Shown here one piece after another: positions 29,183 to 61,040 of a stretch of 64,000 nt of DNA; positions within the stretch are counted from its first letter, which is position 1, and each line of letters starts with the position of its first letter. The translations under genes and the position numbers were made by a program. The stretch is from positions 38,684 through 102,683 of the forward strand of contig CAVYSE010000005.1 of NCBI GenBank assembly GCA_963771075.1, written 5' to 3'. The notes under the pieces are model-generated. The model made no database searches. It saw nothing but the letters and a program-made list of their open reading frames with translations, and was not told where the DNA came from. The stretch comes from a candidate division FCPU426 bacterium (GTDB taxonomy: Bacteria; Oederibacteriota; Muellerivitia; Muellerivitales; Muellerivitaceae).

Positions 29183-29314
29183 CTCTTATCAAGAGTGGCG
29201 GAGGGACAGGCCCTGCGATGCCACGGCAACCGATGCCCGGGTGAAAACCCGGGGATGCCAGGTGCCAATTCCTGCTTCGGTGCGATTTCCTATGAAACCG
29301 GGCGAAGATGAGAG
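29183..29314 (+). ncRNA. SAM-I (S-box) riboswitch
   Basis: CTCTTATCAAGAG-TGGCGGAGGGACAGGCCC-GCGATGCCACGGCAACC...GGTGCCAATTCC...GATGAGAG matches the SAM-I consensus, including P1. Confidence 0.95.
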
Positions 29315-29607: not shown

Positions 29608-30844
29608 ATGACCTACGTGAAGTCCTTAAAATGCCGTGAATGCGGGCAGGAATACGAAAAGACCGCGAAGTATGTCTGCGAGTTTTGCTTCGGCCCCCTG
29701 GAAGCGGCCTACGATTACGACGGGATCAAGAAGGACTATTTCTCGCGAGAAGATCATCTCCCGCCCCACGAACATCTGGCGTTACCGTGAGTTCTTGCCC
29801 GTCGAGGGCGAGGTCTTCAACACCCTGGGCGAGGGCTATACGCCCCTCCTGAAGGCCGAAAGGCTGGGCCGGGAACTGGGCCTCTCCAACCTCTATCTCA
29901 AAAATGATTGCGCCAATCCCACCCATTCGTTCAAGGATCGGGTGGTCGCGGTGGCATCCACCCGGGCCCTGGAATTGGGTTTTGACACCCTGGCCTGCGC
30001 CTCCACCGGCAACCTGGCCAACGCCGTGGCCGCCTACGGCGCCCGGGGCGGCATGAAGCGATTCGTGTTCATCCCCTCGAACCTGGAAAAAGGCAAGGTC
30101 ATCGGGGCCCTGGTCTATGACCCCAACCTGATCGGTGTGAACGGCAATTACGATGACGTCAACCGGCTATGTAGCGAGATCGCGGGAAAGTACAAATGGG
30201 CCTTCGTGAACATCAACATGAGGCCCTATTACGCGGAAGGTTCCAAGACGCTGGGCTATGAGACCTGCGAGCAGTTGGGATGGAAGGCGCCGGACCAGGT
30301 GGTGGTGCCGGTCGCGTCGGGGTCGCTCTTGACCAAGATCTGGAAGGGAACCCAGGAATTCGTCAAGACCGGTTTGATTTCTTCGGCCAGGATGAGGGTC
30401 TTCGGCGCGCAGGCGGAAGGTTGCTCGCCCGTGGCCACGGCCTTCAAGAACAAGACGGACACCTTCAAGCCCGTTAAACCCAACACCATCGCCAAATCGC
30501 TCGCCATCGGCAACCCCGCCGACGGTTATTACGCCTTGAAAACCATCGCCGAATCCAACGGGGCGGCCGAAATGGCTTCCGACCCGGAGATCATCGAGGG
30601 CATCAAGCTTTTGGCGCGTACCGAAGGCATCTTCGCCGAGACGGCGGGGGGAGTCACCATCGCCTGCCTGAAAAAACTGGCCGCCTCCGGCCAGTTGGAC
30701 CCGGACGCCTTGACCGTGGCCTATATTACGGGAACGGGGCTCAAGACCCAGGAAGCGGTGGCGGAACATTTGGGCGAAGTGAAGGTGATCCAGCCCAACC
30801 TGGAAGCTTTCGAGGCCACCCTGCGGGTTCCCGCCGGCGTTTAA
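29608..30844 (+). CDS. thrC: Second threonine synthase-like enzyme with N-terminal Zn ribbon (frameshift near 29735)
   Basis: CRECG...CEFCFGPL in one frame, then NPTHSFKDR, CASTGN and TGTGLKT in the next. Confidence 0.85.
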
Positions 30845-31818: not shown

Positions 31819-32712
31819 TTATTTGATCACCGTCGGGGGTTGGTCGGAGTCGTCCTTTTCCCCGGAGATGGGACCTTTTTTTTGGCCCCCGCCAAAGAGT
31901 TTCTTGAAGAAGGCGCCGATGCCCGCCACGAGGGCCACGATCAAGGCCTTGGCCTTGGCCAGGAGCACCAGGATCATCCCCCCCAGTTTTCCCAAAAGGC
32001 CCGTCTTGGCCGCGAGGGCGCCGCCCCCGCCCAATACCAGGGCCGCCAGGCCGATCTCAGCCACCTTGTCGCCGGTCGTCCATTCGGCGTATTTGTTGCC
32101 GGCCGTGAAATCGAAGCTTTTCACGTCCTCGTTGAACCGGGCCATCACCGCGTCCATGTTGGCGTTGGGCACCAGGGTCACCACCATCACGCCCTTGCGG
32201 CCCAGAAACTTAGTGTGGTAATTGATGAATTGGCCGGATTTATCCTTCAAAATTTCGCCCCACTCCAAGCGGTGGGTTTCGGGGTTGTATTGGGGTTTTA
32301 ACTGCCAGTCCACGAGTTCCATGGTGTCCCAGCCCTTGTCCGTCCTTTCCTTGTTCGCGTCCTCGTTGTTTTTCACCATGGCGGCCCACATCTTGTCCGC
32401 GTCCAGCTTTTCCTTGTCGGCGTCCTTGACGTAGCCTACGTCATCGAAGCTGAAGAGGGCCATGTATCCGTCGCCCTTGTCCTTCCGGATCAACACGCCC
32501 AGGTCCCTGTCTGAATAGAAATTATGGGTCTTGTCCATGAATTCCTTCAGGTCCTTTTGCTGGATGAAGTAATAGCCCTCGGGCACCTGGACTTGGCCAA
32601 TCTCGCCCAATTTACCCATGGCGGGGCCCTTGACGGGCTGGATCTCGGCCAGCAGGGGGGCGGACCAAAGGAATATCAGGCTGAGGACGACGAAATTTGT
32701 TTTGGAGATCAT
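31819..32712 (-). CDS. DUF2167 family membrane-anchored protein
   Basis: GYVKDAD, LGRKGV, GDKVAEIGLAALVLGG, AKTGLL. Confidence 0.85.
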   Translation of the reverse strand: MISKTNFVVLSLIFLWSAPLLAEIQPVKGPAMGKLGEIGQVQVPEGYYFIQQKDLKEFMDKTHNFYSDRDLGVLIRKDKGDGYMALFSFDDVGYVKDADKEKLDADKMWAAMVKNNEDANKERTDKGWDTMELVDWQLKPQYNPETHRLEWGEILKDKSGQFINYHTKFLGRKGVMVVTLVPNANMDAVMARFNEDVKSFDFTAGNKYAEWTTGDKVAEIGLAALVLGGGGALAAKTGLLGKLGGMILVLLAKAKALIVALVAGIGAFFKKLFGGGQKKGPISGEKDDSDQPPTVIK

Positions 32713-32888
32713 TGGATTCCTTCCCAGGGTTTTAAACGCAACGGGCCATAGTATAAGAGAAAGAGGTCCGAAAAGGGCCTGTCTTGGGGCCTGTGAGGGA
32801 TAACGGGTAGGTTAAATTTAATTGATTTGCCCCATGTTCCGTGGTTGTTTAATAGGCGCGTTGAAACAACTTCGTCACGGGAGATCCC

Positions 32889-33710
32889 ATGGAAAGTCTG
32901 CCGAAAATAGCCCAGCTTCTCGCGGAAATCAAAAACAAAAAGCCCCTGGTACACCACCTTACCAATTATGTCACGGTCAACGATTGCGCCAACATCGTGC
33001 TGGCCCTGGGCGCCTCGCCGGTCATGGCGGACGACGAGGGGGAGGTGGCCCAGATGGTGGGGCTGGCCTCGGCCCTGGTCTTGAACATCGGCACGCTCAA
33101 TGACCGGACCATCCGGTCCATGCTGGTGGCGGGCAAAAAAGCCAATGAGAAAGGGATTCCCGTTGTCCTCGACCCGGTGGGCGCGGGGGCCACTAACTTG
33201 AGGACCGAGACCGCCGCCCGATTCCTGAAGGTCATCCAATTGGCGGTGCTTCGGGGCAATATGTCGGAGATTAAGACCCTCAGCGGGGTGGGGGGAGCCA
33301 CCAAGGGGGTGGATTCGACCGCCGATTCCGCCGGAGGGCGGGAGATGGCGGTGGAGATGGCCCGGAAATACAAGTGCGTGGTCGCCATCACGGGTGCGCA
33401 GGACATCATTACGGATGGAACCCGGTTGGCTTTGATCGACAACGGCCACCCCGCCTTGTCCCAGGTGACGGGAACGGGTTGCATGGCCACCTCCCTGGTG
33501 GGCTGTTTTTGCGGGGCGACCAGCGATTATTACCTGGCGGCTTGCGGGGGGATCATGGCCATGGGCCTGGCGGGGGAGTGGGCTCAGGGAGACATGAAAC
33601 TGGGCCGTGGAATCGGGACCTTCCGGGTGAATCTCATGGACGCGATATCCCAAATGACCCCGGAAGATTTCATCAAGGGCGGCAAGATCAGCGAAGGAAC
33701 AGCCAATTGA
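32889..33710 (+). CDS. thiM: Hydroxyethylthiazole kinase
   Basis: PLVHHLTNYVTVNDCAN, LDPVGAGA, RGNMSEI, VTGTGC. Confidence 0.96.
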   Translation: MESLPKIAQLLAEIKNKKPLVHHLTNYVTVNDCANIVLALGASPVMADDEGEVAQMVGLASALVLNIGTLNDRTIRSMLVAGKKANEKGIPVVLDPVGAGATNLRTETAARFLKVIQLAVLRGNMSEIKTLSGVGGATKGVDSTADSAGGREMAVEMARKYKCVVAITGAQDIITDGTRLALIDNGHPALSQVTGTGCMATSLVGCFCGATSDYYLAACGGIMAMGLAGEWAQGDMKLGRGIGTFRVNLMDAISQMTPEDFIKGGKISEGTAN

Positions 33711-33781
33711 GGAGCGGCGCAAACCATGGGAGCAGGTCAGGTATTTACTGGAAAATGAATCGTTTATTCTGGGGAGAGTTA

Positions 33782-39309: not shown

Positions 39310-39338
39310 TTGTCCACGATGGGGACCCTTCGTGGACA
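39310..39338 (+). repeat. Cassette-boundary palindrome, copy 6 (intron target)
   Basis: TTGTCCACGATGGGGACCCTTCGTGGACA, directly before intron copy 1. Confidence 0.9.
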
Positions 39339-41317
39339 TCGTGCCAGCGAAGGTTTGTAGAGCCAGCAGGTGAGGGAGTAGGCCGAAGAGGGCCAGCCCA
39401 AATCCTGACCAGGTAATCGCCAGAGAGCCTGGAAGTCAGCCCCCGGCGTAGGACCGAGAGGTTCTGCCCGAAACGGGGTCATAAACCTCATTCAGTGAGG
39501 GAACAATCTAGCAGTCCGCAACATCAAGTGAATCCTGCCGCGTCGTGAATGGGACACCGAAAGGTGCAAGAGGATGCCGAGCCGCGTGTCTACCGGCGAA
39601 GGCCACGATCCCGCTGAAGAATCTGGAGCAAGCGGGGCAAGTCCTCCGGCGTATGGGGAACGGAATGCTGGAAAGGCTTTGCAAGCAACCTGGGAGATCC
39701 TACCCGCCAAAAGACTTGCCGCTATAAGGCTAAAACCGAAAAGGGGCAAGGGCGGGAGGAAGTCGGAGGGGGTCACAATACCTGTGAAGGGTGGACAACA
39801 AAACCACCTGGAGGGAAGGACCCCTGCTTCAACCAAGCAACCTTCAAAAGGGAGGCGCTGGAGCATGCCCCAAAGGGCCAACAACTCCGAAGACAAGGCG
39901 CGAACCCTTCAAAGGGCGCTATACCGAGCGGCCAAGAGGAGCCCAAGCCGGAGATTTCATGTACTGCATGACAGGATGACCCGATGGGATGTCCTGACAG
40001 CGGCATGGAAACAGGTGAAGGCTAATAAAGGCCAAGGAGGAGTGGACGGGGAAACGCTGGAATGGATCGAAGAGAAGGTGGGAATTATTCCATTCCTGAA
40101 GGGCATCCAGGAAGAACTCAAAGCTGGGAAGTATCTGCCTAAACCTGTGAGACGAGTGGAAATACCCAAGCCTGATGGAAGCAAGAGACCGTTGGGAATC
40201 CCGGTAATTCGGGATCGGGTAGTTCAAGCGGCTTGCCGGAAGGTGGTGGAACCCATCTTTGAGGCGGACTTTCTGGAAGGCTCGTTTGGATTTCGGCCAA
40301 AACGCGGAGCCCAGCAGGCCCACCGGGAGATCAAGAAGTGGATCAATGGCGGGTACAGATGGGTGGTGGATGGAGATATTCGGAAGTATTTCGATTCCAT
40401 CGACCACGACAAACTGATGGTGCTGGTGCGCCAGAGGATCAGTGACCGGAAGGTTTTGAAACTGATCCGAGGGTGGCTGAAGGCGGGTGTGTTTGAGGAA
40501 GGAAGGCTTACGCCGACTCTCCGAGGGACACCGCAAGGCGGGGTGATCTCACCGCTGTTATCCAATGTTTACCTTCACTTGCTGGACAAGGTTTGGAATA
40601 AGAGGCACAGGAAACTGGGTAGGCTGGTGCGCTACGCCGACGATTTTGTGGTGTTGTGCGGAAGCCAAGCCCATGCGGAAAAGAGCCTGGAAGTCATCAA
40701 GGAATTGATGGGACGACTAGGGCTTGAACTGCACCCCGAAAAGACACGGCTGGTGGAAATGGGGCCTGGGAAGGAAGGGTTTGACTTCCTTGGGTTCCAC
40801 TTTCGAGTAGGTATGCCGGTGGTAGGATTGGGTAAGACCTGTTGCCTGAGCTGGCCGAGCCGGAAGGCCATGAAGAAAATCGCCGAGAAAGTGAAGCAGA
40901 TGACGGCGGGCCGAGAGCGGCTCTTATCTCCAATGGAGGATGTAGCGAAGGCTTTGAACCCGGTGTTAAGGGGGTGGGCCAACTATTTCCGAATTGGGGA
41001 CAGCCAGCCATACTTTTCCAAGCTTCAATTTTACGTACTCGAAAGGCTGACTTTGTTTCGGAGGCATAAGTACGCCTGGGAAGGACGAACATGGTCGATC
41101 GAGGAAGTGAAACGCCTTGGTTTGAACTGGATTCCAGCTTTTGCCTTGAATGCTGCCGGTTGAAAGGTTGTCGGAAAGCCGTATGATCGAAAAGGTCACG
41201 TACGGTTTGATGAGGGGGCGCTGGAAACGTGGTGATGAGAGCCGGACTGAGGCCCAATCCGAAAGGGTTGGATTCGCCACCGTACTCTAAGGCATACGCG
41301 CCAGCGCTCTACTCTGC
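39339..41317 (+). mobile_element. Group II intron, copy 1 (~1.98 kb)
   Basis: Appears identical to the other two copies between these limits. Contains an RT ORF, domain V (AAGCCGTATG...TACGGTTT, 41176-41208) and a domain VI ending CTACTCTGC. Confidence 0.93.
39865..41163 (+). CDS. ltrA: Group II intron reverse transcriptase/maturase (no endonuclease domain)
   Basis: GGAGG RBS, RPLGIPVIRDRVVQ, GTPQGGVISPLLSN, RYADDF, FDFLGF, LRGWANYF. Confidence 0.95.
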   Translation: MPQRANNSEDKARTLQRALYRAAKRSPSRRFHVLHDRMTRWDVLTAAWKQVKANKGQGGVDGETLEWIEEKVGIIPFLKGIQEELKAGKYLPKPVRRVEIPKPDGSKRPLGIPVIRDRVVQAACRKVVEPIFEADFLEGSFGFRPKRGAQQAHREIKKWINGGYRWVVDGDIRKYFDSIDHDKLMVLVRQRISDRKVLKLIRGWLKAGVFEEGRLTPTLRGTPQGGVISPLLSNVYLHLLDKVWNKRHRKLGRLVRYADDFVVLCGSQAHAEKSLEVIKELMGRLGLELHPEKTRLVEMGPGKEGFDFLGFHFRVGMPVVGLGKTCCLSWPSRKAMKKIAEKVKQMTAGRERLLSPMEDVAKALNPVLRGWANYFRIGDSQPYFSKLQFYVLERLTLFRRHKYAWEGRTWSIEEVKRLGLNWIPAFALNAAG

Positions 41318-41773: not shown

Positions 41774-41786
41774 TTCACATGAAGAG

Positions 41787-41815
41787 CTGTCCACGACGGG
41801 GACCCGTCGTGGACG
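41787..41815 (+). repeat. Cassette-boundary palindrome, copy 7
   Basis: CTGTCCACGACGGGGACCCGTCGTGGACG. Confidence 0.9.
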
Positions 41816-43878: not shown

Positions 43879-43907
43879 TTGTCCACGATGGGGACCCATC
43901 GTGGACA
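43879..43907 (+). repeat. Cassette-boundary palindrome, copy 9 (intron target)
   Basis: TTGTCCACGATGGGGACCCATCGTGGACA. Confidence 0.9.
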
Positions 43908-45886
43908 TCGTGCCAGCGAAGGTTTGTAGAGCCAGCAGGTGAGGGAGTAGGCCGAAGAGGGCCAGCCCAAATCCTGACCAGGTAATCGCCAGAGAGCCTG
44001 GAAGTCAGCCCCCGGCGTAGGACCGAGAGGTTCTGCCCGAAACGGGGTCATAAACCTCATTCAGTGAGGGAACAATCTAGCAGTCCGCAACATCAAGTGA
44101 ATCCTGCCGCGTCGTGAATGGGACACCGAAAGGTGCAAGAGGATGCCGAGCCGCGTGTCTACCGGCGAAGGCCACGATCCCGCTGAAGAATCTGGAGCAA
44201 GCGGGGCAAGTCCTCCGGCGTATGGGGAACGGAATGCTGGAAAGGCTTTGCAAGCAACCTGGGAGATCCTACCCGCCAAAAGACTTGCCGCTATAAGGCT
44301 AAAACCGAAAAGGGGCAAGGGCGGGAGGAAGTCGGAGGGGGTCACAATACCTGTGAAGGGTGGACAACAAAACCACCTGGAGGGAAGGACCCCTGCTTCA
44401 ACCAAGCAACCTTCAAAAGGGAGGCGCTGGAGCATGCCCCAAAGGGCCAACAACTCCGAAGACAAGGCGCGAACCCTTCAAAGGGCGCTATACCGAGCGG
44501 CCAAGAGGAGCCCAAGCCGGAGATTTCATGTACTGCATGACAGGATGACCCGATGGGATGTCCTGACAGCGGCATGGAAACAGGTGAAGGCTAATAAAGG
44601 CCAAGGAGGAGTGGACGGGGAAACGCTGGAATGGATCGAAGAGAAGGTGGGAATTATTCCATTCCTGAAGGGCATCCAGGAAGAACTCAAAGCTGGGAAG
44701 TATCTGCCTAAACCTGTGAGACGAGTGGAAATACCCAAGCCTGATGGAAGCAAGAGACCGTTGGGAATCCCGGTAATTCGGGATCGGGTAGTTCAAGCGG
44801 CTTGCCGGAAGGTGGTGGAACCCATCTTTGAGGCGGACTTTCTGGAAGGCTCGTTTGGATTTCGGCCAAAACGCGGAGCCCAGCAGGCCCACCGGGAGAT
44901 CAAGAAGTGGATCAATGGCGGGTACAGATGGGTGGTGGATGGAGATATTCGGAAGTATTTCGATTCCATCGACCACGACAAACTGATGGTGCTGGTGCGC
45001 CAGAGGATCAGTGACCGGAAGGTTTTGAAACTGATCCGAGGGTGGCTGAAGGCGGGTGTGTTTGAGGAAGGAAGGCTTACGCCGACTCTCCGAGGGACAC
45101 CGCAAGGCGGGGTGATCTCACCGCTGTTATCCAATGTTTACCTTCACTTGCTGGACAAGGTTTGGAATAAGAGGCACAGGAAACTGGGTAGGCTGGTGCG
45201 CTACGCCGACGATTTTGTGGTGTTGTGCGGAAGCCAAGCCCATGCGGAAAAGAGCCTGGAAGTCATCAAGGAATTGATGGGACGACTAGGGCTTGAACTG
45301 CACCCCGAAAAGACACGGCTGGTGGAAATGGGGCCTGGGAAGGAAGGGTTTGACTTCCTTGGGTTCCACTTTCGAGTAGGTATGCCGGTGGTAGGATTGG
45401 GTAAGACCTGTTGCCTGAGCTGGCCGAGCCGGAAGGCCATGAAGAAAATCGCCGAGAAAGTGAAGCAGATGACGGCGGGCCGAGAGCGGCTCTTATCTCC
45501 AATGGAGGATGTAGCGAAGGCTTTGAACCCGGTGTTAAGGGGGTGGGCCAACTATTTCCGAATTGGGGACAGCCAGCCATACTTTTCCAAGCTTCAATTT
45601 TACGTACTCGAAAGGCTGACTTTGTTTCGGAGGCATAAGTACGCCTGGGAAGGACGAACATGGTCGATCGAGGAAGTGAAACGCCTTGGTTTGAACTGGA
45701 TTCCAGCTTTTGCCTTGAATGCTGCCGGTTGAAAGGTTGTCGGAAAGCCGTATGATCGAAAAGGTCACGTACGGTTTGATGAGGGGGCGCTGGAAACGTG
45801 GTGATGAGAGCCGGACTGAGGCCCAATCCGAAAGGGTTGGATTCGCCACCGTACTCTAAGGCATACGCGCCAGCGCTCTACTCTGC
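43908..45886 (+). mobile_element. Group II intron, copy 2
   Basis: Same sequence as copy 1 (offset 4569) with different flanks. Confidence 0.93.
44434..45732 (+). CDS. ltrA: Group II intron RT/maturase
   Basis: Protein identical to copy 1. Confidence 0.95.
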   Translation: MPQRANNSEDKARTLQRALYRAAKRSPSRRFHVLHDRMTRWDVLTAAWKQVKANKGQGGVDGETLEWIEEKVGIIPFLKGIQEELKAGKYLPKPVRRVEIPKPDGSKRPLGIPVIRDRVVQAACRKVVEPIFEADFLEGSFGFRPKRGAQQAHREIKKWINGGYRWVVDGDIRKYFDSIDHDKLMVLVRQRISDRKVLKLIRGWLKAGVFEEGRLTPTLRGTPQGGVISPLLSNVYLHLLDKVWNKRHRKLGRLVRYADDFVVLCGSQAHAEKSLEVIKELMGRLGLELHPEKTRLVEMGPGKEGFDFLGFHFRVGMPVVGLGKTCCLSWPSRKAMKKIAEKVKQMTAGRERLLSPMEDVAKALNPVLRGWANYFRIGDSQPYFSKLQFYVLERLTLFRRHKYAWEGRTWSIEEVKRLGLNWIPAFALNAAG

Positions 45887-45927: not shown

Positions 45928-46905
45928 ATGGGATTTTTTGAAGAATTCAAAAAACTGCTGTGGCTCTACAACCCCCTTAAAAAATCTGGAAGGCCTGGGG
46001 AGATTAAGAGCCGAGGCATCAACGGAGCTGTTTTTTGCCCCATTTACAACCATTGGATTTCCAACCTTGAGTGTTTAGAAACGAGCGGGGAGCGCGGCTC
46101 CTACGACGAAATTGACAAACCCGATTTAAATCATTTGGAAACCGGCTACAACGATATTCATAACGCGACTAAACGTAGCGGGCATAAATTCCCCCAAGAC
46201 ATTAAAAAAGTGGTCATTACCTGTGAGTATTGTGAAGCCTACTGCCTCGGCCAGGAAAATGGACCTCTAGTAGTCCCTCCCATTGACAGTATCGATCGAA
46301 AGAAATTGTTGTTCGATTTATATGACGAAAGTAAAAGATATTCAAAAGACACCATTGACCCAACGGAATTGGAGAAGATTAAAAAGGCAGCCATGGAACT
46401 GAGCGAAAAAGCCGGAAAATACTTGGCCGAACATCTGAACCTTGAAAAAGAAATACGCGAAATAACAGTCGAATTCGAAGCGCAAGAAACTGGAAAAACG
46501 GGTTTTTGGATCATTCTTTTTGGCCTCGTTTTTGCTGTCGCCGGATTCGGGAATCTTTGGAATGTCAACTGGTTCGCTCATAAAGCCTTTCAGGGGAAAG
46601 GGGCTGTTTTGTCGGTAGAGAAAAAAGAAGCGACCGACAGTGGCAAATGGATTGCCCGGGTCCGATATACCCCTCGGAATTACCCAGAAGTCGTCGCTGA
46701 GCTTGAAGTTGAAAAACCTTATGAAACAAATCAATTGGTAGAATTTCTTTATGACCCACAAAACCCCAATAAGCTACGGCCCGCCAGCTGGTCAAAAAAA
46801 AGTCCGCTGACCAATTTCTTTTTGGCGATAATTGGCATTGTTGTCATCGGGTTCGGCTGGAGCAAATTAAAAGTTGCCAGGCCTTTTTATCCGAAAAGGG
46901 GTTAA
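45928..46905 (+). CDS. Membrane protein with DUF3592-like C-terminal region
   Basis: TM, beta region and VEFLYDPQNP, then TM. Cys-containing N-terminus. Confidence 0.6.
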   Translation: MGFFEEFKKLLWLYNPLKKSGRPGEIKSRGINGAVFCPIYNHWISNLECLETSGERGSYDEIDKPDLNHLETGYNDIHNATKRSGHKFPQDIKKVVITCEYCEAYCLGQENGPLVVPPIDSIDRKKLLFDLYDESKRYSKDTIDPTELEKIKKAAMELSEKAGKYLAEHLNLEKEIREITVEFEAQETGKTGFWIILFGLVFAVAGFGNLWNVNWFAHKAFQGKGAVLSVEKKEATDSGKWIARVRYTPRNYPEVVAELEVEKPYETNQLVEFLYDPQNPNKLRPASWSKKSPLTNFFLAIIGIVVIGFGWSKLKVARPFYPKRG

Positions 46906-46929
46906 AAGGTTGCTATGAGGCCATTCCTC

Positions 46930-47119
46930 AAGTTCAATTAAGCCCACCCGTCAGCCTTTTGGTTTCGCGGATTCACGCTGCTATTCGTGCTCGAGGCACA
47001 AGTTAAAAATTCGATAATCCAGTAGGGAAGCCACCAGCTGTCCATCGTGCCTTACGGCACCACCAAATTCCGTGGTCATTCCAAAGGGATCGAATCACAA
47101 AACCGAGGCTGAAACCTCT
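46930..47119 (-). ncRNA. Putative bridge/seek RNA region of the IS1111 element
   Basis: About 190 nt of non-coding sequence 3' of the transposase, as expected for IS1111. Contains AGCTGTCCA (47036-47044, + strand), which matches the repeat junction. Confidence 0.55.
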
Positions 47120-48196
47120 TTAGCGCATGGGCCGATACACTTCCTTCCGAACCAACATCGTCCAAAGGTGAATCAAAAGCTTGTGCGCCATTGCCACAAT
47201 CGCCTTGTTGACGTGTCCCGTATTACGGACCAGTCGACGAAAAACACGGTAGGCCTGGGTATCCTTTTGGATCCATGACCAGGCCGCTTCAACCAAGGTC
47301 GCTCTCAAAGTGCCTTTTCCGGCCTTCTGTAAATGGCCTTCCTTCCGGGTTTCACCGCTTTGCCTGATCCTAGGGGCCAACCCCACGTAAGCCGCCACTT
47401 GTTTGGCGTTTTCAAAGCGTTCCGGCTGGTAAATCTCCGTTAATACTTGCAGGGTCGTCACTTCGCCCACTCCTGGGTGGGTTCTCAGGATCTTGGCCTT
47501 TTTCTCGTAGGCCTTCTCCTTCATCATGACCCTCAAACGTATGTTCACGTCCTTGAGCTGCCTATCAAAGTAAAAAAGATCTTCCAATAGGCGATCCAAG
47601 GTGAACCTCAGGGCAGGTGGCAGTTCCATTTCCCGTAATATCCCAATGGCTTCGTGGGTCCAGTAATCCAACCCTCTGGGAGTTTTGAGCCCATATTGAA
47701 GGAAGAAGCTCTTGATCCTTTGTTTGGCCTTGCGTTTCTGCTCGACCATCGCGTTCCTCAAACGAACCACCTGCCGGTCAGCTTCTTCCTGGAGGGTTGG
47801 GATCGCCACCGCCTTCAGCAATTCTTTCTCCGCATACTCCGCCAGTTTGCTACAGTCCAAACGGTCGGATTTTGTTTCAAACTGCGACACGCGAGGAGTC
47901 TTGTGCGGGGCGATGACATCCAATGGGTATCCCTCCTCCCGAAGGCGGCGGGCCAGGCCAAAACCGGTAGGGCCTGCCTCGTAGACGACCTTTTTCAACC
48001 CCACCCGATAAGGCGCCAGGACCTTCACCACCGCCTCCCAGTCCGCTGTCAGGGACTTTGTTCCGACTTCCTTTCCGTTAATCCTGATTGCCATATAAAT
48101 ACTTCGTTTGTGGACATCCAATCCCACAAACACAGCGTCCCGCTTGGATACCTCCTTGCCTCGGTATCCTTTTTTGCTAATCTGTTTCATGGCCAT
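47120..48196 (-). CDS. IS110-family DEDD recombinase/transposase
   Basis: FVGLDVHK, YEAGPTG, KSDRLD, PGVG, YVGLAPRIRQSG, AIVAMAHKL. Confidence 0.95.
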   Translation of the reverse strand: MAMKQISKKGYRGKEVSKRDAVFVGLDVHKRSIYMAIRINGKEVGTKSLTADWEAVVKVLAPYRVGLKKVVYEAGPTGFGLARRLREEGYPLDVIAPHKTPRVSQFETKSDRLDCSKLAEYAEKELLKAVAIPTLQEEADRQVVRLRNAMVEQKRKAKQRIKSFFLQYGLKTPRGLDYWTHEAIGILREMELPPALRFTLDRLLEDLFYFDRQLKDVNIRLRVMMKEKAYEKKAKILRTHPGVGEVTTLQVLTEIYQPERFENAKQVAAYVGLAPRIRQSGETRKEGHLQKAGKGTLRATLVEAAWSWIQKDTQAYRVFRRLVRNTGHVNKAIVAMAHKLLIHLWTMLVRKEVYRPMR

Positions 48197-48266
48197 TCCT
48201 CCTTGTGAGTTGCCTGCTCACCGGGACTAGTTTAATCCCGGCGGAGGAATGGCCTTCATGTTACCT

Positions 48267-48293
48267 GTCCACGACGGGGACCCGTCGTGGACA
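48267..48293 (+). repeat. Cassette-boundary palindrome, copy 10 (IS1111 target)
   Basis: GTCCACGACGGGGACCCGTCGTGGACA. The missing TT lies at 46910-46911. Confidence 0.9.
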
Positions 48294-48376
48294 CCTAATT
48301 CTGACGTGGCTTTGGATAAACCTCTTTGCTTTAGTCATGGGTGATAAGGACTGAATTTTAGGACGAAAGGAAAACC

Positions 48377-48978: not shown

Positions 48979-49007
48979 TTGTCCACGACGGGGACCCATC
49001 GTGGACG
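48979..49007 (+). repeat. Cassette-boundary palindrome, copy 11 (intron target)
   Basis: TTGTCCACGACGGGGACCCATCGTGGACG. Confidence 0.9.
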
Positions 49008-50986
49008 TCGTGCCAGCGAAGGTTTGTAGAGCCAGCAGGTGAGGGAGTAGGCCGAAGAGGGCCAGCCCAAATCCTGACCAGGTAATCGCCAGAGAGCCTG
49101 GAAGTCAGCCCCCGGCGTAGGACCGAGAGGTTCTGCCCGAAACGGGGTCATAAACCTCATTCAGTGAGGGAACAATCTAGCAGTCCGCAACATCAAGTGA
49201 ATCCTGCCGCGTCGTGAATGGGACACCGAAAGGTGCAAGAGGATGCCGAGCCGCGTGTCTACCGGCGAAGGCCACGATCCCGCTGAAGAATCTGGAGCAA
49301 GCGGGGCAAGTCCTCCGGCGTATGGGGAACGGAATGCTGGAAAGGCTTTGCAAGCAACCTGGGAGATCCTACCCGCCAAAAGACTTGCCGCTATAAGGCT
49401 AAAACCGAAAAGGGGCAAGGGCGGGAGGAAGTCGGAGGGGGTCACAATACCTGTGAAGGGTGGACAACAAAACCACCTGGAGGGAAGGACCCCTGCTTCA
49501 ACCAAGCAACCTTCAAAAGGGAGGCGCTGGAGCATGCCCCAAAGGGCCAACAACTCCGAAGACAAGGCGCGAACCCTTCAAAGGGCGCTATACCGAGCGG
49601 CCAAGAGGAGCCCAAGCCGGAGATTTCATGTACTGCATGACAGGATGACCCGATGGGATGTCCTGACAGCGGCATGGAAACAGGTGAAGGCTAATAAAGG
49701 CCAAGGAGGAGTGGACGGGGAAACGCTGGAATGGATCGAAGAGAAGGTGGGAATTATTCCATTCCTGAAGGGCATCCAGGAAGAACTCAAAGCTGGGAAG
49801 TATCTGCCTAAACCTGTGAGACGAGTGGAAATACCCAAGCCTGATGGAAGCAAGAGACCGTTGGGAATCCCGGTAATTCGGGATCGGGTAGTTCAAGCGG
49901 CTTGCCGGAAGGTGGTGGAACCCATCTTTGAGGCGGACTTTCTGGAAGGCTCGTTTGGATTTCGGCCAAAACGCGGAGCCCAGCAGGCCCACCGGGAGAT
50001 CAAGAAGTGGATCAATGGCGGGTACAGATGGGTGGTGGATGGAGATATTCGGAAGTATTTCGATTCCATCGACCACGACAAACTGATGGTGCTGGTGCGC
50101 CAGAGGATCAGTGACCGGAAGGTTTTGAAACTGATCCGAGGGTGGCTGAAGGCGGGTGTGTTTGAGGAAGGAAGGCTTACGCCGACTCTCCGAGGGACAC
50201 CGCAAGGCGGGGTGATCTCACCGCTGTTATCCAATGTTTACCTTCACTTGCTGGACAAGGTTTGGAATAAGAGGCACAGGAAACTGGGTAGGCTGGTGCG
50301 CTACGCCGACGATTTTGTGGTGTTGTGCGGAAGCCAAGCCCATGCGGAAAAGAGCCTGGAAGTCATCAAGGAATTGATGGGACGACTAGGGCTTGAACTG
50401 CACCCCGAAAAGACACGGCTGGTGGAAATGGGGCCTGGGAAGGAAGGGTTTGACTTCCTTGGGTTCCACTTTCGAGTAGGTATGCCGGTGGTAGGATTGG
50501 GTAAGACCTGTTGCCTGAGCTGGCCGAGCCGGAAGGCCATGAAGAAAATCGCCGAGAAAGTGAAGCAGATGACGGCGGGCCGAGAGCGGCTCTTATCTCC
50601 AATGGAGGATGTAGCGAAGGCTTTGAACCCGGTGTTAAGGGGGTGGGCCAACTATTTCCGAATTGGGGACAGCCAGCCATACTTTTCCAAGCTTCAATTT
50701 TACGTACTCGAAAGGCTGACTTTGTTTCGGAGGCATAAGTACGCCTGGGAAGGACGAACATGGTCGATCGAGGAAGTGAAACGCCTTGGTTTGAACTGGA
50801 TTCCAGCTTTTGCCTTGAATGCTGCCGGTTGAAAGGTTGTCGGAAAGCCGTATGATCGAAAAGGTCACGTACGGTTTGATGAGGGGGCGCTGGAAACGTG
50901 GTGATGAGAGCCGGACTGAGGCCCAATCCGAAAGGGTTGGATTCGCCACCGTACTCTAAGGCATACGCGCCAGCGCTCTACTCTGC
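49008..50986 (+). mobile_element. Group II intron, copy 3
   Basis: Same sequence as copy 1 (offset 9669) with different flanks. Confidence 0.93.
49534..50832 (+). CDS. ltrA: Group II intron RT/maturase
   Basis: Protein identical to copy 1. Confidence 0.95.
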   Translation: MPQRANNSEDKARTLQRALYRAAKRSPSRRFHVLHDRMTRWDVLTAAWKQVKANKGQGGVDGETLEWIEEKVGIIPFLKGIQEELKAGKYLPKPVRRVEIPKPDGSKRPLGIPVIRDRVVQAACRKVVEPIFEADFLEGSFGFRPKRGAQQAHREIKKWINGGYRWVVDGDIRKYFDSIDHDKLMVLVRQRISDRKVLKLIRGWLKAGVFEEGRLTPTLRGTPQGGVISPLLSNVYLHLLDKVWNKRHRKLGRLVRYADDFVVLCGSQAHAEKSLEVIKELMGRLGLELHPEKTRLVEMGPGKEGFDFLGFHFRVGMPVVGLGKTCCLSWPSRKAMKKIAEKVKQMTAGRERLLSPMEDVAKALNPVLRGWANYFRIGDSQPYFSKLQFYVLERLTLFRRHKYAWEGRTWSIEEVKRLGLNWIPAFALNAAG

Positions 50987-56348: not shown

Positions 56349-56946
56349 TAAGATCCGCAAATGGCTAGACCGTTAAGAGTGCATTATGAAGGCGCTGTTT
56401 ATCACGTTACCTCGCGGGGGAACGAGCGGAAAAACATTGTCCGGTCGGATAAGGACCGGGAATTGTTTTTGTGGGTATTGGCCCAAGTCGTGGAGGATCA
56501 TCATGTGATGTGCCATGCCTGGGTATTGATGGATAATCATTACCACTTGTTGGTGGAGACGCCGGAAGCCAACTTGTCACGGGCCATACGGCACCTGAAT
56601 GGTGTTTATACCCAGAAATTCAATCGGCGGAATAACCGCAGAAAAAGGGGCCAGGCCTACATATTACACTTTACGTGAAACGCGTCTATCTTGAGGAGGG
56701 TCGGGAAGGTGTATGGGGAAAAGCCGGAGGAGGTATTGAGGGCGGGGCGCAGGAAAAGCGTGGCGCGGGCGGTGGCGATTTACCTGCTCAAGAAGGAATC
56801 GGGTTTGAGCCTGGGGGAAATCGGAAAAAGGATGGAGGTCGGTTTTTCGGCGGTGGGGAACCAATGGTCGAAGATCAAAAAAAGCTGTCCGAGGACCCTG
56901 AATTTGGCCGGATGGTTCTAAAGTGTAAAATGTAGGCCTGGCCCCT
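56315..56946 (+). mobile_element. Internally deleted RAYT (REP-associated HUH/Y1 transposase) element
   Basis: Left end GGGGTCAGGTCT (56315) and right end AGGCCTGGCCCCT (to 56946). An internal inverted copy of the right end lies at 56646-56671. Confidence 0.75.
56361..56921 (+). pseudogene. RAYT transposase fragments (HUH N-terminus plus DnaA-C-like HTH tail)
   Basis: MARPLR...YHVTSRGNER...LMDNHYHLLVETP, then ARAVAIYLLKKESGLSLGEIG. The catalytic Tyr region is missing. Confidence 0.85.
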
Positions 56947-59627: not shown

Positions 59628-61040
59628 CACTGCTATCCTAAACAACTCAATCTGACCGCTGCCCCCCAAGAAAAACAAGCGATTTTGGACAGGTTTGTGA
59701 ATTTCCAGGGATAAGCCCCCCCCTTTCGTCCGGATGCTGTCCAAATCACGAGGGTATTAATTCCATCTGTTTTTCCGCCGGTTCCAATCTCGCCACCAGG
59801 AATGGTGCATCCAACCAAGCCCACAAATCGCGGTAGGTCAATAGATTCATCCGCAGCATGGCCGCCAAGTGGGACAGGCTCCAGGCGATATGGCTCTTCA
59901 GTTGAAGGAATTTCAACAGCAGCATGGCAATCAATGCTGTCCAAATCTGCGTCTGAACAGCATTCTCAGTGGTCCCTACGAAAGTCTTCACCCGTAAGTT
60001 CTGCTTGAGAGCCTTGAAGAACAACTCGATCTGCCAACGTTCCTTGTAGATGGCCGCCACCGTCGAGGCAGCAAAACCCATGTGGTTGGTAAGGAATACG
60101 AGTTCCCGCTTCTGGTCTTCGTCCCATACCACCACTCGTCGCATCTCTTTCGGGTAGGCTTCCTGTGACCGAAACGTTGTTAACCGTATCACTTGGTCCT
60201 TCAGGACGTTGCCCGTTTTCGGAACCGGCAGGTTCTTCACCACCTCGTAGGCCATGTTGATCTTGGCACGGGTCACCCACCACACGCCTTGGAACGTCCA
60301 TCGGGCCAGAAGAAAGAAATCCACATATCCCCGATCCATCACTACGATTGAATCCACCGGAAAATCCAGCTTTTGAGCCACTTTCACGTCATGCACGCCT
60401 CCCTCCGTTACGAGTCCCCAGCAGGGCAAGTATCCCTGATGATCCAGCAAGAGATGGAGTTTGATGGCCCCTTTGGTCCTACGGAACTTTGCCCAGTCGA
60501 AGACTGACAAACAAAGATCAATGGTGCTGGAGTCCAGGCTGTAGAGGGGATTCTTGAACTTGAATTTCCTCTTCGAGATGGCCGCCTGTAGCTGACACTT
60601 CGATAGCAGATGGTAGAAAAGACTTTGCTGAACCTGCCAAGGACGGTTGGCGTTAGCGTAAGCCAAGGTGGATTTAGTGGGTGCTTCGCAAAGACCCAAA
60701 TGGGTCAATTTCCCAAGGGCCGTGTGGAGGCCACCACAGATTTCCCTCAAGGAATGGGCGGCTCCCATCTGGCAGAAAAGCATGGAAACAAACTGATTCC
60801 AGCAACTGAACCCCTTGGCGTGTTTTTCGGCTTCAAACTCCCGCACAATTCGTTCAAAAGCCGTGCGATCCACAATTTTCAACACTTGGGCAAAAAGACT
60901 GGTTGGTGGTACCATCGAAATACGCCTCCGGATGTTTGAAGTAGCGACGGCTGGTAACCGTCGCTTTGGGCTTGTCGACTAACCCAATTCTACTTCAGTC
61001 GGAGGTGTCTTTTTTTAGTCCTTTATTTAGGACAAGAGTG
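59628..61040 (-). mobile_element. IS4-family insertion sequence
   Basis: IRs CACTGCTATCCTAAA / TTTAGGACAAGAGTG and a 9-bp TSD AATTGAATG (59619-59627, 61041-61049). Confidence 0.92.
59746..60915 (-). CDS. IS4-family DDE transposase (DUF4372 N-terminus)
   Basis: LDSSTIDL, VMDRGY, YKERWQIELFFKALKQ. Confidence 0.95.
   Translation of the reverse strand: MVPPTSLFAQVLKIVDRTAFERIVREFEAEKHAKGFSCWNQFVSMLFCQMGAAHSLREICGGLHTALGKLTHLGLCEAPTKSTLAYANANRPWQVQQSLFYHLLSKCQLQAAISKRKFKFKNPLYSLDSSTIDLCLSVFDWAKFRRTKGAIKLHLLLDHQGYLPCWGLVTEGGVHDVKVAQKLDFPVDSIVVMDRGYVDFFLLARWTFQGVWWVTRAKINMAYEVVKNLPVPKTGNVLKDQVIRLTTFRSQEAYPKEMRRVVVWDEDQKRELVFLTNHMGFAASTVAAIYKERWQIELFFKALKQNLRVKTFVGTTENAVQTQIWTALIAMLLLKFLQLKSHIAWSLSHLAAMLRMNLLTYRDLWAWLDAPFLVARLEPAEKQMELIPS

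Follow-up and report, generated by a model that had tools for sequence, protein, structure and literature searches.

Among mobile elements that are associated with repeats, IS621 reportedly inserts in repetitive extragenic palindromes, whereas certain IS1111 elements are said to target the attC sites of integron cassettes (Post and Hall 2009), as are group IIC-attC introns. In the IS1111 elements ISEc11, ISKpn4, ISPst6 and ISPa11, a guide RNA termed seekRNA or bridge RNA is located in the right end (Siddiquee et al. 2024, PMC11187229; Durrant et al. 2024, PMC11208160), which according to PMC11208160 is the case for 93% of IS1111 elements, and its guides are ordered with the match to the top strand first, with natural retargeting known to occur (PMC11187229). 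Here we describe an element from the genome of a candidate division FCPU426 bacterium (assembly GCA_963771075.1), which is part of a stretch of 64,000 nucleotides of contig CAVYSE010000005.1 (positions 38,684 to 102,683) that we refer to as the window and whose numbering is used throughout. We consider it, with a probability of about 0.85, to be an intact and recently active IS1111-type member of the IS110 family, consisting of a gene for a DEDD recombinase and of a bridge or seek RNA of about 140 nt in its right end, which contains two guide loops.

With the four IS1111 elements named above (as described in PMC11187229 and PMC11208160), the window element shares the combination of a DEDD domain with a GL-P----SG motif, subterminal inverted repeats and a short left and long right end. 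As in these elements, the match to the top strand is located 5' of the match to the bottom strand, both overlap at the core, and natural retargeting proceeds by changes of the loop strands only. Conversely, the protein of the window element is distant, its target is a different palindrome and the predicted pairing with the right half of this target is very short at the two copies in this genome. The bridge RNA of IS621, in the accounts given in PMC11208158 and PMC11208160, displays the same two internal loops, each with the order stem, guide, hairpin and guide, one for the target and one for the joined ends, the same kind of shared core dinucleotide and the same relationship of the two or three letters after the guide, which follow the partner DNA and are known as handshake guides. 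In contrast to IS621, the predicted RNA of the window element is encoded in the right instead of the left end, the order of its guide strands is reversed, its core is CA and not CT, its subterminal repeats are long, and the protein aligns to that of IS621 over its C-terminal part only. Compared to the systems that use attC sites, here too the recombination-site-like repeat of a cassette-like array is exploited both by an element of the IS1111 type and by a group II intron. This repeat differs in being a near-perfect palindrome of 26 bp without the features of attC, and no integron integrase was found in the genome.

The described element is a new, though rather unremarkable, representative of an established class of mobile elements that are guided by RNA. 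It opens no new kind of biology and is of moderate interest only. With it, a divergent clade of RNA-guided recombinases of the IS1111 type, which is apparently active, becomes known from an uncultured lineage of soil and peat, together with eight natural sets of guides and targets, in which both loop strands are rewritten as the target changes. In nature, this clade appears to accept a poor match in one or the other half of the target, which bears on the off-target behaviour of bridge recombinases, and a palindrome found across the family is marked as a landing pad shared by an insertion sequence and a group II intron.

Anatomy of the element and its insertion sites

The element extends from position 46911 to 48267 on the minus strand, including the TG dinucleotide (CA in the orientation of the element) that is found at both junctions (46911-12 and 48266-67), and it encompasses 1355 bp if one TG is counted. 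These limits are defined by the junctions and by a second copy in the same genome. On the minus strand, an open reading frame (47120..48196) encodes a DEDD recombinase/transposase of 358 residues, which combines an N-terminal DEDD/RuvC-like domain with a C-terminal Transposase_20 domain as is typical for the IS110 family, and which matches the Pfam profiles PF01548 (9.6e-12) and PF02371 (2.1e-24) and the NCBIfam profile NF033542, 'IS110 family RNA-guided transposase', with 243 bits at a cut-off of 140. Equally characteristic for this family is the absence of terminal inverted repeats and of a target duplication, combined with a short shared core and insertion at a specific site. Upon excision of the element with one TG retained, the flanks join to AAAGGT-TG-TCCACGACGGGGACCC and thereby restore a normal copy of the palindromic repeat. 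The shared TG core and the empty site thus both appear as they had been described in the original prediction, which was made from the sequence of the window alone.

The assignment to the IS1111 type relies on several features of the element. Its subterminal inverted repeats, at 46915..46929 in the right end, where the sequence is conserved in relatives, and at 48243..48259 in the left end, match perfectly over 11 nt and at 15 of 16 positions with one gap, compared to 7-17 bp reported for IS1111 elements (PMC11208160). They are located 2 and 6 nt inside the ends if counted outside the core, and 3 and 7 nt, as originally proposed, if the cut is placed inside the TG. IS1111 elements are further described to contain a longer non-coding region downstream of the transposase gene and a GL-P----S(T)G motif in the C-terminal domain of the protein (PMC11187229). 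In the window element, the recombinase gene is followed by 208 nt of non-coding sequence and preceded by 69 nt comprising the leader and the left end, and its translation contains the stretch GLAPRIRQSG, in which the positions G, L, P, S and G are invariant in an alignment of five proteins. Judged from its sequence, the element is thus of the IS1111 type by virtue of its subterminal repeats, its non-coding layout and its motif, and the proposal of an IS1111-type bridge recombinase at the edge of a repeat is borne out by profiles, layout and motif alike. The proposed span of 46910..48293 described a real element but ended at the wrong position, as it takes in the 26-bp target palindrome (48267-48292).

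At the protein level the element is remote from described homologues. The closest match to the transposase among 72,556 plasmid records is 36.5% identical, and the transposases of the named relatives ISSso6, ISLin1, IS1618, IS5708 and ISHvo9 are 25-31% identical over 92-97% of the length. Matches in the PDB to ISCro4 (1.2e-16) and IS621 (1.5e-13) align to the C-terminal part only.

The two ends of the element contain candidate signals for its expression. A -35-like TTGAGG in the right end (46926..46931, minus strand) would find its promoter-like partner, TAACAT of the left end (48258-48263, minus strand), only across the junction of a circle, where both would be separated by a spacing of 17 nt. 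The arrangement TTGNNN-17-TANNAT across the joined ends was detected by a script in seven of the eight elements compared below, and in the eighth (ISg) it was read by eye. A junction promoter has reportedly been found in ISEc11. In the leader RNA, the left-end repeat pairs with the ribosome-binding site as part of a very stable hairpin (–39.9 kcal/mol, z = –5.8, with none of 200 shuffled sequences being equally stable), and it is for this pairing that read-through translation would be predicted to be silenced.

The second genomic copy (G000:C9) is 99.6% identical over 1393 bases and resides in unrelated flanks, with the same junctions, which read ..GGGT-TG-element-TG-TCCACGACGGGGACCC.., and thus at the same position in another copy of the repeat. 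In the window, the element is located at the left edge of a 26-bp palindromic repeat copy (48267..48292), and the three flank bases GGT on its other side (46908..46910; ACC in the orientation of the element) are common to both genomic insertion sites. The genome contains 91 palindrome edges with the sequence TGGAC|A, and the triplet that most often comes next is ACC (10 cases), the one found at both occupied sites. As to the flanks of other copies, which had been regarded as informative in the original prediction, another genome of the family harbours a relative with 92% protein and 87% DNA identity, of which it contains four full copies and a partial one. Four of these five copies abut the palindrome arm ..GTGGA-CA-, at either edge, so that the edge of the same palindrome is occupied by them and by both copies of the window element, while the left flank of the fifth copy (L022) is not the palindrome. 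In L022-L024 (2768-2801), the same relative carries a tandem duplication of 17 bp of its right terminus (GGAATGGCCTCATAGCA twice), the second unit of which is altered in L021.

Contigs of four public runs, two from RNA and two from DNA libraries, all break at 46908-46911 and 48266-48298, as would be the case for an element that has these ends and is present in several copies. Neither a circle junction nor any other joint appears in the four runs, all of which consist of contigs that could not reveal one. In the runs X16 and X8, one contig each passes through the palindrome arm beside the left end of the element. In light of the sequences of its copies, the element is intact and recently active.

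A conserved fold in the right end

To characterize the non-coding region of the right end, we have compared the window element to seven relatives whose ends could be fixed. Besides the 92% identical relative, termed G067 type (loci L021-L024), this set includes ISb with three copies (61% protein identity to the window element), and ISc (63%), ISd (55%), ISe (48%), ISf (51%) and ISg (44%) with one copy each. The loci L027, L049, L051, L052 and L053, where the right end is cut, disrupted or not alignable, were left out of the comparisons, and about 65 loci at about 30% identity are outside the set. Within the set, ISg (L050) is found in an array of 32-nt tandem repeats, and ISb (L031/L036/L038) in runs of a GGAATTN heptamer.

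The right-end regions of the eight elements align and share a single consensus structure, which in the window covers positions 46963..47102 on the minus strand and corresponds to a predicted bridge or seek RNA of about 140 nt. It combines a closing stem with a further stem that opens into an internal loop containing a small hairpin, and with a second hairpin that has single-stranded sequence on both sides. Counted after the removal of two spurious pairs, 87.9% of the 248 cells of the consensus are standard-paired, compared to 31-51% if the partners are slid by 1-3 columns, and 14 of the 31 pairs show compensatory changes on both sides. Neither of these values is reached in any of 500 shuffles. 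The support for the fold from eight related sequences is thus good but not overwhelming. An alternative stem of the donor loop, GGAUU/AAUCC, was rejected since the relatives back the closing stem instead. All eight RNAs contain a shared frame composed of CCAC, a 5' strand of 11 nt, a hairpin, a 3' strand of 11-15 nt (12 nt in six of the eight) and a closing GUGG, which is replaced by CUGG in ISe and UUGG in ISg.

Predicted guide strands and their targets

The described frame defines the putative target loop of the window element, which on the minus strand is composed of the 5' strand GGAAUUUGGUG (47061..47071), the hairpin GUGCC-GUAA-GGCAC (47047..47060), which corresponds to helix 3 of the consensus, with 92.5% of its cells paired and two compensatory pairs, and the 3' strand GAUGGACAGCUG (47035..47046). 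The 5' strand is the complement of top-strand sequence immediately to the right of the core, whereas the 3' strand repeats the left flank and core and would pair with the bottom strand. Both strands vary with the flanking DNA among relatives. The longest Watson-Crick run of the 5' strand with its cognate right flank amounts to at least 6 in nine of 14 copies (6, 6, 7, 8, 8, 8, 9, 9 and 10), compared to values of 2-5 in every cell that combines it with a non-cognate flank. Near misses are observed for L023, with 8 of 9 pairs and one mismatch (run of 5), and for ISc, with 7 of 8 pairs and one mismatch (run of 4), while the cell of L021 was dropped as its right flank had been set at the first of two duplicated ends. 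For the 3' strand, cognate runs with the sequence of left flank, core and left end cover 5-9 letters, and 7 in case of the window element. Its guide reads UGGACA, equivalent to the palindrome arm and core, in the window element and the G067 type, and AUUA, UUA, CCUCA, ACACA or GGGA in other relatives, in each case for its own flank. The comparison with the seven relatives thus reveals loop strands that are complementary to both strands of the target, with the top-strand match located 5', as found in seekRNAs and bridge RNAs.

The same comparison bears on the question whether the palindrome might be recognized by the recombinase protein itself, with the matches in the non-coding region being due to chance or structure. 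A palindrome is a strong structural signal, and the seventh repeat copy in the window, although it shares nine letters with the right end, is not an insertion site. However, relatives with the same fold insert in quite different sequences that are not palindromic, namely in heptamer repeats, in a tandem repeat of 32 nt and in unique DNA, both loop strands of these relatives change to match the flanks, and guidance by RNA was demonstrated experimentally for the family (PMC11187229; PMC11208160). We thus find recognition by the protein hardly credible. The nine letters, AGCTGTCCA, are found at 47036-47044 and again at 41785-41793 in repeat copy 7 as originally noted, and they are located in the 3' strand of the internal loop of the conserved fold and not in a stem, which had been named as a finding that would speak against a guide. 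As a guide (UGGACAGCU in RNA) this stretch was recognized correctly in part, since UGGACA appears to be a real guide, whereas the subsequent GCU is at positions that in relatives follow the left end of the element. The stretch is thus composed of six guide letters and three that are largely incidental, and its identity with repeat copy 7 is for that reason not the relevant match.

The second internal loop (46976..47014, minus strand) is the predicted donor loop. It contains a 5' strand (47000-47014), a hairpin (46987-46999, helix 4) and the 3' strand GAAUAGCAGCG (46976-46986), which holds the letters AUAGCA, equivalent to the right end and core, in all eight elements, while the 5' strand shows a loose match to the left end of the element. 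In either loop, the letters that follow the guide show a relationship to the partner DNA. The two letters after AUAGCA equal the first two bases of the flank in six of the eight elements, with ISc and the window element as exceptions, and in six of the eight, positions 9-11 of the 3' strand of the target loop are the same as the three bases with which the left end starts. The latter is manifested in GGU with GGT in the G067 type, ISc, ISd and ISf, in GAU with GAT in ISe and in GUU with GTT in ISg, whereas ISb (GGU with GAT) and the window element (GCU with GGT) each miss by one letter. These letters mirror the handshake guides of IS621 and might engage in an equivalent pairing.

In the mechanism that we propose, the element would excise as a circle, in which the joined ends would create a promoter. 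The first loop of the resulting RNA would bind the target, by pairing of UGGACA with the bottom strand and of GGU with ACC of the top strand right of the core, and the second loop would bind the donor, with its 3' strand copying the right end and core and its 5' strand loosely the left end. In this way, the RNA would bridge the circle junction and the repeat edge TGGA-CA-ACC, with the recombinase exchanging strands at CA.

Several observations weigh against this proposal. The fold of the window copy as a single sequence is not unusually stable (z = –1.24), and a search of Rfam with the region 46880-48320 returned chance-level matches only and no curated family. Contigs from two RNA libraries extend over 46911-47284 and 46976-47320, but as contigs they are no evidence of transcription, and stretches that they leave uncovered, such as 48042-48095, carry no information either. 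With respect to the guides, the run of the 5' strand is only 3 at both genomic copies of the window element, which equals the non-cognate background, and the rest of this strand would fit a sequence ..CCAAATT.. that is absent from both sites. Finally, the GCU after UGGACA matches neither the left end (GGT) nor the flank without the help of wobble pairs.

A run of only 3 at both copies implies that the programming for the right half of the target is weak. In the register defined by the five closest relatives, the GGU of the 5' strand (G8-G9-U10) pairs with ACC and the first G of the hairpin with the C of the core, but nothing further pairs in the right flanks of the two genomic copies, ACCTTTTA and ACCCTATA. 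The window element thus matches 6 of 6 bases of the bottom strand and only 3 of the top strand, and the original prediction of a recombinase that is programmed by RNA for this site holds for the half that contains the palindrome arm, whereas the other guide strand pairs with only three bases of the flank. We read this weak right half either as reflecting a short requirement on this side or as a tolerance of half-matches. A first register of the 5' strand, which placed the core C opposite position 11, was rejected as it pairs only 5 of 9 positions with the real flanks, and was replaced by that of the five closest relatives. In the rejected register, the right flank of the same palindrome at 48290-48300 (CACCTAATTCT) shows a 9 of 11 match to the reverse complement of the 5' strand. 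No such match is seen at the C9 copy, and the other register suits all four known flanks better. This near match may be due to chance.

It is conceivable, though clearly the less probable reading, that the guide is really programmed for a different right half (..RCCAAAUU..) and that both genomic copies result from half-match insertions via the palindrome arm, the core and three bases. In that case, the run of 3 at both copies would find its explanation, as relatives reach 6-10, and L022 would provide the converse case, where the right half is perfect (9 of 9) and the left flank agrees with the palindrome at 4 of 6 positions. Half-match insertion was also reported for IS621 (preprint 10.64898/2026.08.31.748434). 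Two further flanks were found in contigs of an RNA library, ACCATT.. and GCCAAAA.., and with 4 and 6 consecutive pairs to the 5' strand, in the register of the five closest relatives, they also back the main proposal. For the alternative, the better fit is provided by the latter, GCCAAAACC from another sample, which includes one wobble among its 6 pairs. All four known right flanks share RCC, whereas the remaining letters of the 5' strand (..AAUUU) fit one of them. Both extra flanks are based on mismatch-free overlaps of 30-33 nt with the end of the element, with 30 letters of each being seen, which limits their weight in favour of half-match insertion. This reading is also opposed by the lack of any occupied site with a full match and by a scan of the genome for the ideal target in either register, where no palindrome edge has fewer than 2-3 mismatches and the best unoccupied one has 3 in 16 positions. 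Moreover, natural IS621 pairs 4 nt on the corresponding side (PMC11208158), so that three bases and the core may be all that is normally needed.

The palindromic repeat and its arrays

The core of the repeat has 22 matches on both strands of the window, where 0.31 would be expected. The genome contains 77 repeat loci (with up to 5 mismatches in 26 positions), which are clustered in arrays of the same orientation behind open reading frames. In the window, palindrome arrays are found between 33784 and 63226, and the open reading frames behind the repeats include PIN, GNAT and APH-like genes. Of 31 genomes of the family, 29 contain the repeat core, representing 16 of 17 genera, compared to one match of the reversed control sequence across the 31 genomes. 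In contrast, the clade of the insertion sequence is found in only four of the 31, and the palindrome is the target of just two of these elements. This distribution argues for the element being a parasite of an old and widespread site and not its maker.

The original prediction had left open whether the element is a parasite of the array or contributes to its rearrangement, and of these proposals the first is supported by the described distribution, whereas no support was found for the second. The second would assign the element a role in the service of the arrays, where it would build or rearrange cassettes by recombining palindromes. In its favour, the arrays are cassette-like, with open reading frames of the same orientation each followed by a repeat, no integron integrase exceeds the cut-off in the genome (the best match scores 41.8 bits compared to 265) and bridge recombinases are capable of inverting and excising DNA (PMC11208160). 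However, besides the discrepancy in the occurrence of repeat and element, the genome contains only two copies, both of which are simple insertions, and the centre of the palindrome adjacent to the window element keeps the orientation of its array, which speaks against an inversion of palindrome and element. We thus regard such a service as highly improbable. Based on the orientation of the palindrome centre, a scenario where the element would have inserted at the right edge and subsequently been flipped together with the palindrome was rejected. A reading of the array as integron was equally rejected, as the open reading frame at the first repeat (32709-33722) matches no family and no integrase is found above the cut-off. 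We consider it a long shot that a right-half guide of three bases could accept many edges of a palindrome found throughout the family and recombine repeats, turning the element into a surrogate cassette recombinase of arrays that lack an integron integrase, and that the handshake-like positions might reflect a general and so far undescribed rule of the guide RNAs of IS1111-type elements.

The palindrome is also associated with a second type of mobile element. The window contains three identical group II introns on the plus strand, at approximate positions 39338-41317, 43907-45886 and 49007-50986, each with a reverse transcriptase/maturase of 529 residues. They begin 3 nt after a palindrome copy (..GTGGAC-atc/gtc-GTGCCAGCG), and more copies of the intron are found elsewhere in the genome. 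With both the insertion sequence and the group II intron located at the palindrome, the repeat would serve as landing pad for two unrelated mobile elements.

Further mobile genes are found in the same part of the window. An open reading frame of 105 residues for a Y1 (IS200-like) transposase (56361-56678) resides inside the repeat region, with 20 Y1_Tnp matches in the genome, many of them in open reading frames of about 320 residues, and an unrelated DDE transposase gene (DUF4372 and DDE_Tnp_1) is encoded on the minus strand at 59746-60915. Finally, a SAM riboswitch (RF00162, 72.4 bits) is found at 29183-29314, upstream of a gene for a PLP-dependent enzyme (29636-30844).

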